IMG/VR virus record: IMGVR_UViG_3300023174_000002
Coordinates: 35,209-99,208 of that record
Strand: one strand, 5' to 3'
Origin: a virus
DNA: 64,000 nucleotides
Below, piece by piece: positions 41,556-47,717 of the stretch. The number at the start of each line of letters is the position of its first letter. Position 1 is the stretch's first letter. A model generated the notes under the pieces. It did no database searches. It was not told where the DNA came from and worked only from the letters and a program-made list of their open reading frames with translations. Position numbers and translations under genes: made by a program.

Positions 41556-41765
41556 CCAGGGTGTTGTAAATTTACAACACCGCTGGCGCCAATTTTACCA
41601 GTAAAATTGGGCGCGTGTCAACAAAAATTTAAAATTTTTGTGTTGTATTTTTACAACGCTGACCGCGCCAAAATTATACACTAGCCTGGCCCGTGTGTCA
41701 ATAGGGGTTTGTCCCTATGTTGTATTTTCGCAAAACCTGGCACAACCCGATTTTTCGTGTATAAT
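41556..41765. repeat. Intergenic palindromic cassette, tandem copies 3a/3b
   Basis: Two TGTTGTA..TACAAC + GCGCCAA..TGTCAA units, then an inverted TAGGG..CCCTA-TGTTGTATTTT unit. Confidence 0.85.
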
Positions 41766-41772
41766 TCACTAC

Positions 41773-42276
41773 ATGGACACAACGCAGGCAAACAAGATGA
41801 TTAAACGGATCGCAATTTATGACATGGACGGCACTATCGTGGATTCCAGCCACCGTTACCGGACTATTTTAACCGATGCTGGTGAGCGCATTGATATTGG
41901 CTATTGGCGAGACAATCAGCATTTGGCAATGTTGGATGGCTTATTGCCATTGGCTAATAAATTTTGGGATGACTTGGACGATCCAGAATGTTATACTATC
42001 ATTGCGACTGCGCGGGTTATGAATGATCCAGATTGGGAATTTTTGAATACTAAATTGGGTATGCCAGATTATGTTATTTCGCGTACCCGCGATGATCAAC
42101 AATCAGGTTCCACGCTAAAGATTAACGGATTGATTAAATGCTTTGAGACTGTTAATATCAATTTAGATAATCTGCAAGATGTTGTTTTCTATGAGGACAA
42201 TGTAGATTATCTCAAAGCGGTATGCGATTACTTTGGTTTTCGCGGTGTTTATATTCCTAGCAAACAAGGACACTAA
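41773..42276 (+). CDS. HAD-family phosphatase (nucleotidase-like, possible functional counterpart of T5 Dmp)
   Basis: Motif I YDMDGT, motif II ATAR, motif IV FYEDN; the ORF-track 5' extension runs through the repeat. Confidence 0.8.
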   Translation: MDTTQANKMIKRIAIYDMDGTIVDSSHRYRTILTDAGERIDIGYWRDNQHLAMLDGLLPLANKFWDDLDDPECYTIIATARVMNDPDWEFLNTKLGMPDYVISRTRDDQQSGSTLKINGLIKCFETVNINLDNLQDVVFYEDNVDYLKAVCDYFGFRGVYIPSKQGH

Positions 42277-44312: not shown

Positions 44313-44639
44313 ATGGCTGAAAAGACTGTGAACTATACCCCTGAGCAAACCCTGAACCTTATTGCCGATTACAAAAACGGTTTTACCGTTGAAGAATTGG
44401 CTTTGCAAATGGGCAAATCGGTTCGCTCAATTGTCGCTAAACTTTCCCGTGAGGGTGTTTACGAAAAGAAAACCTATAAAACCAAAACTGGCGAAAAGGT
44501 TGTTAAAAAAGACGCGCACGCTGATGCAATTGGTGCAATCCTGCGATTGCCGGAAAATGACATTGAATCCCTGACCAAAGCCAATAAATCGGCATTGAAA
44601 GCAATTTTCGACGCATTGGCTAATTCAAAACCCATTTAA
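44313..44639 (+). CDS. T5 A2-like DNA-binding protein, paralogue 2
   Basis: About 84% identical to paralogue 1 (17 of 108 residues differ, counted by eye); own promoter at ~44262-44289. Confidence 0.75.
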   Translation: MAEKTVNYTPEQTLNLIADYKNGFTVEELALQMGKSVRSIVAKLSREGVYEKKTYKTKTGEKVVKKDAHADAIGAILRLPENDIESLTKANKSALKAIFDALANSKPI

Positions 44640-45378: not shown

Positions 45379-45430
45379 ACCCTGTATAATAGAATCTTCA
45401 ACAGCGCAGAAACCGAAACACAAAGGACAT

Positions 45431-45742
45431 ATGATGACTGACAAAACTGTAAATTACACCGCAGAACAAACCGCTCAAATTATCGGACTTTACACCACGG
45501 GTAACTCTGTGGAAATGATCGCCGAGCAGGTTGGCAAATCTGTGCGGTCGATTGTGGCAAAGCTCTCCCGTGAGGGAGTGTACATCCCCAAGACCGCGGC
45601 TAAGGGTCAGGGCCGGGTTACCAAGGCCGACCTGATCGGTCGCCTTGCCAACAAGTTTGCGATTGACGCTACCGAAATCGCTAGCCTTGAAAAAGCTGGT
45701 ATGGGTGCCCTAGAGCTCTTGGTATCCAAAGCCGGGGCATGA
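45431..45742 (+). CDS. A2/D3-family DNA-binding protein, paralogue 3
   Basis: NYTAEQT...GKSVRSIVAKLSREGVY...ASLEKA; AAGGA RBS; promoter TTGATA(45362)-17-TATAAT(45385). Confidence 0.75.
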   Translation: MMTDKTVNYTAEQTAQIIGLYTTGNSVEMIAEQVGKSVRSIVAKLSREGVYIPKTAAKGQGRVTKADLIGRLANKFAIDATEIASLEKAGMGALELLVSKAGA

Positions 45743-45802
45743 TCAACTGGGGAGAAGAAATTCTGACTTGATTCTTCTCCCCAAACCCTGTATAATATTA
45801 TT

Positions 45803-46445
45803 ATAGACAGTTAGGAAAGAGCTTATCTGAAAGGACAAAGCGCAGATACCGGCATCACGTACCACTACCCCGCCCGCAAGCATATGTATAGCTAGCAATT
45901 TGTAGTGCCAAGTACACGGCCGACGACTGTTTGTCTCAGTGGGTGACAGCGGCGCGTTACATATGCTGGCGTCTTAATTGTGGGGAATTTATGTTAAAGC
46001 CGAGCCACAGCCCTGAGCAGTTTACTCGATTTGTGATTTTAGTCACAAGTCTATTTTAGTGGCTAGTCTATTTTATTAGCTAGTCTTTTTACGAAATCCT
46101 GGACCCTAAGGTTCGCAACCCAGATGGCTACCAGGTGGTTGTAAATACCAAAACTTACCAAGTTGTCTAGAACTTGTAAATAACTTAGACAGTGTTCTTC
46201 CGGGACTTTACGAGAAGTGTGCAACTAGAGCAGTGCTGTCTAGCGGTTAGGCCCGCTAGTAAAAATATAGGCCCAGGGTTGATGACGTAGTGTGCTAGCG
46301 TTTGCGCTAGTTGCTCTGCCAGACCCTACCGCGGAATGACAGGTCGCTGTAGCAGACAAGCTCTGTGAAAACCACGTCAAACCTGCATTAAAAACTTCTC
46401 GAGAGTTCAAAAACCCGCAAGGCGACGGCCTTTGGCGGGTTTTTG
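45803..46445 (+). ncRNA. Candidate large structured non-coding RNA (~640 nt)
   Basis: Promoter TTGATT(45768)-17-TATAAT(45791), terminator at 46409-46445, no + strand ORF in the track, many complementary helices. Confidence 0.6.
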
Positions 46446-46446
46446 T
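46408..46446. terminator. Bidirectional intrinsic terminator
   Basis: CAAAAACCCGC...GCGGGTTTTTG. Confidence 0.8.
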
Positions 46447-46621
46447 TTGCGTACAGTATTTACCACAAAAAATATGGTCTTGCGCCAATATTATACAGTG
46501 CTAAATCTAATTTGTCAACAGTAAATTTTTATTTCTGACCCTAAGCCACAGCAAGCAGTCACCCAACAAAAAGCCCCACACAACTTGCGCTGATAGGGGC
46601 GATTTAGGGTCAGATTTGAGA

Positions 46622-46942
46622 TTATTGAGGATTTGGGCAGTTTTGGTGACTTAAACGGGTTTCTATAACCTGAAGAATACCTTTATTCACCTTTTCCAGA
46701 CTTTCTAGAAGTTCTGGGTTCATATTTAAGAGCTTAGCAATGTTTTCTATGTGCTCTGACTTTTTAGTAGGTACTTCACCACGCTTGTTCAAGTAGGCTT
46801 TTTTCTGGTAGACACCTAAACTTGAGAGCTTAGCAATGATACTACGCTCCGGCACCTCCAGCTCCTGTGCAATTTTTTGGACGTGAACGCCGGTTTTGTA
46901 TTGCTCTATAAGACGGTCAGTAATTTCTTTAGTATATTTCAA
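46622..46942 (-). CDS. T5 D3-like protein (A2/D3 family)
   Basis: KYTKEIT..LIEQY...RSIIAKLSSLGVY..ESLEKV; TTG start with AAGGAG; downstream of a D2-like gene as in T5. Confidence 0.7.
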   Translation of the reverse strand: MKYTKEITDRLIEQYKTGVHVQKIAQELEVPERSIIAKLSSLGVYQKKAYLNKRGEVPTKKSEHIENIAKLLNMNPELLESLEKVNKGILQVIETRLSHQNCPNPQ

Positions 46943-46952
46943 GTTGGTCTCC

Positions 46953-47717
46953 TTAATTCCACGGTAAATCAACGACCCTATCAGCTAAGGGTTGCTGCAC
47001 TTGTTGTGGGTGAAAAATCTCTGAGTCTACTAGTGGTTTGGGCATCATATCCCAATTTTTAGGGTCTAGGATCATTAATTCGGTCCTAAGGCTGGGGTGA
47101 GCTACCCAAATCTGTGTAAGCATGGTGACTGCCAGCTTAGGCAGCCCAAAAAGCTCAGTGTCCTGAATGCCTGTTAGGGTCCACTTGCTGGTAGCCTTTT
47201 GCACACTACCAGCTTTGGCTCCGCTTTTGACTGTTAAACCCTGTTCTCTGATCTCCAGCAAACGCTCTGACCCTAAATCAGGGCACTGAGTAAACATTGC
47301 TTCCAGCAATTCCTGGTGTACCAGTTTAGTGTCTGGATTGAGCTGCCAAGCACTGTAAGGCACACTTTGATAGCGTTTGACCCCTGCTAGGATGACCGGA
47401 ACTAGTTGACTGCAATTAACACCAACGGGGCTACCCTGCAGTTTAACCAAACTGCCACGTTTTAGCTTAGTCACTACCCGCCACAAACCCATGTGCCAGG
47501 CTGTAGTAATATTCTGCTTGGCTGTTTCTTGCGGTAGTACTAAGCCCTGATCGTTGCGTATCAATTTCCAGCTACCATAGTGTGCTAGGATTTGTGGCAG
47601 CATCCAGCTGTTAAAATTTTGTAAGCCGTGTTTTTCTGCTAGGGCTTCTAGTGAGATGGCGTCTGCGTATTCTTCGAATGGAAATTCATCTATGTGCTGT
47701 TGTTTTAGTTTAAACAT
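46953..47717 (-). CDS. T5 D2-like protein (DNA replication associated)
   Basis: FPFEEY, W.LPQIL, LVP.IL...K.YQ.VPYS.W and MLTQIWVAHPSLR motifs recalled from the D2 family. Confidence 0.7.
   Translation of the reverse strand: MFKLKQQHIDEFPFEEYADAISLEALAEKHGLQNFNSWMLPQILAHYGSWKLIRNDQGLVLPQETAKQNITTAWHMGLWRVVTKLKRGSLVKLQGSPVGVNCSQLVPVILAGVKRYQSVPYSAWQLNPDTKLVHQELLEAMFTQCPDLGSERLLEIREQGLTVKSGAKAGSVQKATSKWTLTGIQDTELFGLPKLAVTMLTQIWVAHPSLRTELMILDPKNWDMMPKPLVDSEIFHPQQVQQPLADRVVDLPWN

Follow-up and report, generated by a model that had tools for sequence, protein, structure and literature searches.

A near-invariant pseudoknotted junction is the hallmark of an undescribed RNA family in uncultured T5-like phages

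Background

What is encoded by a long intergenic gap that is delimited by a promoter and a terminator, and in which no credible open reading frame can be found? The question is raised by an 880-nt gap in the window analysed here, a 64,000-nt stretch of viral DNA taken from a virus record of 99,208 bp (IMGVR_UViG_3300023174_000002), of which it spans positions 35209-99208. The record has direct terminal repeats and is graded complete, and the tail tube protein that it encodes shares 31-35% identity with its counterparts in T5-like phages infecting Vibrio, Klebsiella and others. The gap extends from a 104-aa gene (45428-45742, + strand) to a 116-aa gene (46622-46972, - strand); the products of both, along with that of 44313-44639 (+), are paralogous small D5-like DNA-binding proteins, matching the PHROGs families 'DNA binding protein' and 'D5-like transcriptional regulator'. 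These three paralogues have the motif KSVRSIVAKLSREGVY in common, and border the locus in the window and in its relatives. A sequence-only reading had proposed that the gap encodes a structured non-coding RNA under signals of its own, presumably expressed early beside A2/D3/D2 and belonging either to a class resembling GOLLD and ROOL or to a new one.

Few RNA classes are as poorly understood as the large structured RNAs of phages, of which GOLLD and ROOL are examples; both frequently adjoin or enclose tRNA genes. Smaller precedents are the species 1 and 2 RNAs of T4 and the stable RNAs of T5, which are non-coding, co-transcribed with phage tRNAs and of unknown function. GOLLD consists of one conserved and one variable part, sometimes with tRNAs inside it, and both GOLLD and ROOL form RNA-only assemblies (10.1101/2024.12.08.627333). 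Hammerhead ribozymes are also common in phage transcripts, which they process (PMC3088659).

Results

Related loci and comparison with known RNAs

A protein-guided search identified six viral contigs in which a non-coding gap of 640 to more than 1,600 nt occupies the syntenic position. Two of these gaps contain a tRNA-Glu, and all six have one segment of approximately 75 nt in common. Searching with a 15-mer from this segment retrieved 48 viral loci, nearly all of them true homologues; a longer pattern retrieved 96 metagenome stretches, and a third, using other fixed positions, 14 additional viral loci. The motif, described below as a junction, is thereby found in around 130 viral or metagenome stretches besides the window. 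Ten loci contain full-length homologues of the RNA in the window (74-91% identity), which were aligned with it to give the 11 sequences used to study covariation.

No Rfam 15 model matched the window at the gathering score, and relaxing the threshold to E <= 10, in a cmscan of 45600-46650, gave no relevant match. GOLLD (RF01998, a model of its conserved 3' domain) had no match at E <= 10 in the window and none at the gathering score in 25 related loci, and ROOL (RF03087) was likewise unmatched in the window (E <= 10) and the related loci. Membership of either class, one half of what had been proposed, is thus not supported by the cmscan results, leaving the other half, an undescribed class. 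The Rfam models for OLE, HEARO, raiA, group I and II introns, RNase P RNA, tmRNA and 6S RNA were also unmatched, in agreement with the previous view that the stretch is not a tmRNA, RNase P RNA or intron. Below threshold, the scan picked up only terminator-like sRNA models (46405-46604) and hairpin-like matches (45741-45829). Nor was similarity to the whole region detected by blastn in 50,697 GenBank phage records, a search that takes in T5 and T4 provided the collection contains them; the stable RNAs of these phages also differ from the RNA in the window in that the latter has no adjacent tRNA.

Transcription signals

A sigma-70-type promoter at 45768-45796 (+) was found by consensus scan, with TTGATT and TATAAT hexamers separated by a 17-nt spacer (10/12 matches), from which transcription is predicted to start near 45803. 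Nine of the ten relatives retain both hexamers, and the -35 box is shifted in L069 and L044. This promoter belongs to a family of four copies in the region (D1), two others of which sit immediately upstream of D5-like genes. An 11-bp inverted repeat, GGGGAGAAGAA / TTCTTCTCCCC (45749-45782, +), was read from the sequence directly 3' of the upstream gene, overlapping the -35 box; both of its arms are conserved in all 11 homologues.

At the other end, the scan and a stable fold (-24.2 kcal/mol, z = -4.0) that leads into a U run support an intrinsic terminator at 46409-46445 that is conserved in the relatives, where its sequence changes are partly pairing-preserving. As A and U runs flank the hairpin, it reads on both strands. 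The promoter and terminator that had been read from the window are therefore both upheld, as is an antisense promoter at 46490-46518 (-), which has 12/12 consensus matches (TTGACA-17-TATAAT). It points leftward straight at the terminator and is conserved across lineages; the longest RNA predicted from it is about 80 nt, or longer in relatives that have a repeat block, described below, in the intervening space.

Evidence for a structured non-coding RNA

Between these signals (45803-46446, +, about 640 nt) no open reading frame survives comparison, as every frame present in the window is broken by stops or frameshifts in the relatives, bearing out the proposed absence of a credible coding sequence. 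Compared with shuffled controls, the folding energy of the whole region is low for either strand (MFE z = -3.0 for + and -4.2 for -). The associated remark that it is more GC-rich carries little weight, its GC content being 0.44-0.51 and that of the upstream gene higher.

A structure of 163 pairs was assembled on the 11-sequence alignment from RNAalifold predictions and a hand-built junction. With this structure 95.4% of alignment cells are paired, compared with 34-40% in slid controls. Doubly changed pairs number 24, against 11.0 +/- 2.0 in 500 shuffles, none of which is as high, and 4-9 in the slid controls; the structure was derived from the same alignment, which biases the test in its favour, and the margin is large. 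G.U cells (147) greatly exceed C.A cells (19), indicating that the + strand is the one that folds. Domain A, the junction and domain B1, as defined below, are 80-98% identical among relatives, while the flanking genes are 65-93% identical, such that these parts of the RNA are mostly conserved as much as or more than the adjacent coding sequences; the identity of B1 falls to 80-82% in L069 and L044. With covariation, broken reading frames and conserved signals in agreement, 45803-46446 is very probably a gene for a structured non-coding RNA, as its reader had suspected, and one that belongs to a new family.

The RNA appears to be modular. Domain A (45803-45939, +), a 5' multi-helix region predicted by RNAalifold from the 11 sequences, contains helices 45806-14/45924-31, 45819-24/45838-43, 45850-53/45919-22, 45859-62/45912-15 and 45863-68/45902-07, three of which include doubly changed pairs, and a large loop with an invariant palindromic UAGCUA (45890-45895). 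By blastn it is confined to the lineage of the window. The same is true of domain B1 (46098-46262, +), which was detected only in that lineage when a covariance model (R1) was used to search 100 loci. B1 is defined by the alignment structure and covariation, with helices 46098-102/46131-35, 46136-43/46220-27 and 46197-200/46214-17 and a hairpin, 46240-46/46253-59, that has three doubly changed pairs. The remaining 3' part, domain B2 (46263-46407, +), is less conserved: L145 and L106 lack part of it and L069 and L044 have other sequence in place of that part, although its two hairpins, 46352-57/46361-66 and 46394-98/46403-07, both covary.

This map agrees only in part with the pairings that had been picked out from the sequence alone. 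The strongly covarying hairpin at 46240-59 was among them, and segments 46098-102/46131-35 and 46164-69/46186-91 are kept or compatible with the alignment structure. Three longer-range helices are rejected because their complementarity is lost in relatives: 45818-29/46353-64, for which the 11/12 complementarity described is indeed present in the window, 45879-88/45958-67 and 46211-18/46394-401. The 3' partners instead form the local hairpins of B2. A fourth pairing, 46003-08/46059-64, lies partly within an insert that is missing from six of the ten relatives, and a fifth, 46221-28/46307-14, can form in 8 of the 11 sequences but competes with 46136-43/46220-27, which is formable in all 11. A pseudoknot had also been anticipated, and does exist; however, it is small, lies within 45941-46013 and was not among the listed pairings.

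The pseudoknotted three-way junction

All these loci have in common a pseudoknotted three-way junction, which in the window is 73 nt long and occupies 45941-46013 (+); in the following, position 1 is G45941. It is composed of helices P0 (1-4/70-73), P1a (5-7/31-33) and P2 (39-43/65-69), a variable hairpin (13-29) and a pseudoknot (10-12/60-62). Altogether 78 distinct copies were obtained from uncultured viral and metagenome contigs, the smallest natural variants being 62 nt long. Their variation follows the proposed pairing. Position 4 in P0 is U in 70 copies and C in eight, paired with G70 throughout; in P2, G42A occurs together with C66U in one copy; and in the pseudoknot, G11A with C61U and G12A with C60U each occur twice, in copies that differ in their hairpins. 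All five double changes, at 11/61, 12/60 and 42/66, are hence compensatory. A nested alternative, in which a G44-C61 pair closes the second loop of the junction, was rejected because G44 is A in seven copies and the 11/61 and 12/60 changes always remain paired. The variable hairpin, represented by 61 distinct versions, has a mean folding energy of -4.2 kcal/mol compared with -1.4 kcal/mol when shuffled (p = 6 × 10-11).

Further support is provided by second, diverged junction copies found approximately 200 nt downstream of the first in some relatives (24-29 bits with covariance model R2), in which P1a, P2 and the pseudoknot differ in sequence yet remain complementary. When first and second copies are counted jointly, double changes affect 9 of 15 pairs and pairing extends to 99.7% of cells, neither of which is matched by any shuffle. 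In L070 (872-941), L156 (256-325) and L016 (6688-6754), the second copy adjoins a tRNA-Glu on its upstream side.

Approximately 35 of about 55 core nucleotides never vary, unpaired ones included. The search patterns themselves account for part of this invariance; two of the scans left the 12 nt at the 5' end unconstrained and the third did so for the 3' half, and neither stretch showed variation. The copy in the window conforms to the family core, GGGYGACAGCRR ... CGUCUUAAUUGURG ... YYGAGCYACAGCCC, and can form P0, P1a, P2, the variable hairpin and the pseudoknot 10-12/60-62. It scores 64.5 bits (E about 1 × 10-17) with R2, the alignment of which includes it, and is the only copy that this model detects in the genome.

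The distribution of the junction is narrow. Searching the 50,697 GenBank phage records by blastn, with the junction alone and with the whole region, gave no matches or matches at chance level, and 185,579 prokaryote genomes contained a single instance, on a 2.9-kb MAG contig; its occurrence is thus all but limited to phage DNA. As a nearly unchanging signature, the junction marks out an RNA family of uncultured T5-like phages that has yet to be described.

Association with tRNA-Glu and hammerhead ribozymes in other lineages

The surroundings of the junction were compared in 90 distinct loci with at least 800 nt of downstream sequence, 12 within the lineage of the window and 78 outside it. In the other lineages the junction starts 12-16 nt past the -10 box, and in most it lies upstream of a tRNA and begins no more than about 5-10 nt from where the transcript is predicted to start. 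A type I hammerhead is found downstream of the junction in 62 of the 78 loci, with the layout CUGAUGAG / stem II / CGAAAC / long stem III / GGGUC and covariation in stems I and II. These ribozymes were not called by Rfam models at the gathering score, which detected only tRNAs in 25, and then in six, related loci, perhaps because of around 60 extra nt in stem III. A tRNA-Glu(UUC) with an encoded CCA end is present in 30 of the 78 loci, the only other types in that position being two tRNA-Tyr. Both elements occur together in 22, and in 15 of these the hammerhead begins 5-7 nt after the tRNA; the proximity of hammerhead-like ribozymes to the CCA end of tRNA-Glu can be seen in L083, L010, L056 and L064. 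A junction of the first type ends 11 nt before tRNA-Glu in L104 and L043, and in the X-Y loci it is the second-type copy that ends shortly before the tRNA. One 100,412-bp contig has two loci with identical junctions (L029:14211-14283 and L041:55-127), followed by different downstream modules and then, in each case, by a tRNA-Glu of its own.

By contrast, none of the 12 loci in the lineage of the window has a tRNA-Glu or a hammerhead. A hammerhead pattern (CUGANGA core, stem II, GAAA, stem III and NUH site) is absent from the whole 99-kb genome, ARAGORN and RF00005 detect no tRNA in 45743-46622, and tRNA-Glu is not among the nine tRNA genes of the genome. As 135 nt of domain A also precede the junction in the window, it represents an atypical member of the family. 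The retention of the junction in these 12 loci without tRNA or hammerhead implies that it is not merely a tRNA leader.

One feature of domain B1 may relate to the missing tRNA. The 16-mer at 46238-53, within the covarying hairpin 46240-46259, matches the D-arm of the tRNA-Glu of the relatives at 14 of 16 positions on the same strand; it is the single such site in 64 kb, where 0.28 would be expected even allowing three mismatches. Applying an nhmmer profile of tRNA-Glu to 120 loci identified no partial tRNA where the full one is absent, and none in domain B. Because the profile sees no wider homology, the resemblance is to be taken as a lead rather than a finding.

A repeat block in two alternative positions

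Between the junction and domain B1, the window contains a 75-nt insert (46020-46093, +) with a 10-bp hairpin (46028-46051), a U-rich tail and three direct repeats of AGTCT(A/T)TTTT at 46048, 46065 and 46082, spaced by 17 nt. It is found at this position in 5 of the 11 sequences (the window, L106, L122, L146 and L145), and a similar block lies 3' of the terminator, before the convergent promoter, in L129, L059, L128, L051, L069 and L044. The block, a hairpin with three or four direct repeats of TAGTCT(A/G)TTTT, has the same orientation at both positions, which are mutually exclusive except for a short remnant in L145. This constancy suggests a role at the level of DNA, possibly as repeats to which a protein binds, or a small mobile cassette. 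Its hairpin was flagged as terminator-like by the scan (fold z = -3.8) and, judged by this sequence, may terminate some transcripts after the junction. Were it to stop many of them, the full 640-nt RNA might be a minority product.

Discussion

How might such an RNA act? Transcription would most likely be carried out by the host sigma-70 RNA polymerase from 45768-45796, ending at 46409-46445, and would produce a modular RNA comprising domain A, the 73-nt junction, the 75-nt insert in some relatives only, and domain B. In most members the junction instead stands at the 5' end of a stable-RNA operon, with a second diverged junction, often a tRNA-Glu and a type I hammerhead; the lineage of the window has its own domains A and B, and lacks both tRNA and ribozyme. 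It is proposed that the product acts as an RNA, in trans and early in infection, by offering the invariant core of the junction to a partner, either a protein or a small molecule. The hairpin similar to the D-arm of tRNA-Glu may participate, and the partner is possibly tied to the handling of tRNA-Glu, or is a host factor that attacks it. Both the partner and the action in trans are purely inferred. This mode of action is favoured because unpaired core nucleotides are invariant and the junction persists without tRNA or ribozyme, and is advanced tentatively; the explanation as a whole, an RNA gene of a new family with a junction that binds a partner in trans, is given a probability of around 0.5.

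A more speculative generalisation, somewhat harder to credit than binding in trans, would make the junction, of about 55 nt, a new functional RNA class in itself (a ribozyme, a nuclease block, or an aptamer or decoy for a factor directed at tRNA-Glu) onto which phages graft varied cargos, that of the window having a mimic of tRNA-Glu in place of the tRNA.

The strongest competitor to trans action is that the junction serves in cis as a 5' leader, its knotted fold blocking 5'-end-dependent nucleases or organising processing, with the remainder of the RNA in the window as cargo. The exonuclease-resistant RNAs of flaviviruses, which are compact three-way junctions locked by a pseudoknot, are often found in tandem and shield the RNA downstream, offer a parallel in possible mode of action, with no relation in sequence. 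The position of the junction in most lineages, near the transcript start and upstream of a tRNA, fits a leader equally well: it invariably comes first in the unit, in most lineages beginning 12-16 nt downstream of the -10 box, it or its second copy can end just before the tRNA (by 11 nt in L104 and L043, and in the X-Y loci), the hammerhead follows the tRNA after 5-7 nt in 15 of 22 loci, and the fold occurs in tandem copies. However, the 135 nt of conserved domain A that precede the junction in the lineage of the window mean that it is not 5'-terminal there, a simple hairpin would suffice for protection, and the invariance of unpaired nucleotides suggests a more specific role. The leader as formulated here is accordingly doubtful, with a protective or processing role in cis nearly as likely as the trans-acting one.

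Four other readings are less likely than either. Searches in the neighbourhood of known ribozymes have led to the discovery of several ribozyme classes, and a small pseudoknotted fold with near-invariant unpaired nucleotides, predicted to be co-transcribed with hammerheads in 62 of the 78 loci outside the lineage of the window, could be a new self-cleaving class that cuts the operon transcript along with them. The junction has no recognisable cleavage-site signature, though, and is kept without a hammerhead in the lineage of the window, making this improbable.

Marginally less probable again, and drawn by analogy, is assembly of the RNA into an RNA-only multimer, a cage or dimer, as shown for GOLLD, ROOL and OLE. 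Like GOLLD and ROOL, the RNA in the window is large, ornate, multi-domain and phage-encoded, and belongs to a family linked to tRNA genes; the palindromic UAGCUA loop (45890-45895) could make a kissing contact. Unlike them, it has a conserved core of only about 55-75 nt, at the 5' side, and the association is specifically with tRNA-Glu and the hammerhead. The absence of sequence or model similarity to GOLLD and ROOL, and the restriction of domains A and B to one small lineage, count against it.

That the gene is a functionless, decaying remnant of a tRNA-Glu and hammerhead operon would account for the loss of both elements from this lineage, for a leftover D-arm-like fragment, and for the variability of B2, partly deleted in L145 and L106. 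It is very unlikely given that many helices in A and B1 show compensatory changes, that these domains are mostly better conserved than the neighbouring genes, and that promoter and terminator are intact in relatives. Least likely of all is an element acting as DNA (an origin, protein-binding repeats or a promoter trap), which would suit the block of 17-nt-spaced repeats with its constant orientation in two alternative places, the three flanking D5-like DNA-binding paralogues and the consensus promoter directed into a terminator, but not the G.U excess over C.A and the pseudoknot covariation, which fit a single-stranded RNA from the + strand, nor the fact that the repeats occupy just 75 of 640 nt and are missing here from six of the ten relatives.

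On the most modest reading, the locus defines a new, Rfam-worthy RNA family with about 80 distinct sequences available as a seed. Its core of 55-75 nt is compact, almost invariant, supported by covariation and amenable to isolated study. Natural variants have the core with tRNA-Glu and hammerhead in some lineages and with unrelated domains in others, and this modularity gives a direct handle on its role. If the link to tRNA-Glu reflects tRNA supply against a host nuclease, or a decoy for such a nuclease, the family would constitute an RNA-based layer of phage counter-defence.

Other features of the genome

Several minor features of the genome were also recorded. A tmRNA with tag ANDEVFALAA was called by ARAGORN outside the window, near the left genome end (G000:C1:1820-2220), surrounded by a cluster of six tRNAs (G000:C1 1600-3947). 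Within the window, the ORF at 41638-42276 (+) weakly matches polynucleotide kinase in PHROGs (phrog_415, E = 8 × 10-8), and may be relevant to the repair of RNA ends left by a ribozyme or an anticodon nuclease. The sequence TTAGGGTC occurs 20 times in the genome, mostly within genes. Finally, an inverted repeat, TCTGACCCTAAGCC / GATTTAGGGTCAGA (46534-46547 and 46601-46614), brackets the terminator of the leftward genes (46568-46600). Read on the + strand, this element has the form CUGA ... UUAGGGUC-AG and resembles the hammerhead of the relatives minus its UGAG / stem II / CGAAA core; it occurs too in lineages with an intact hammerhead elsewhere.
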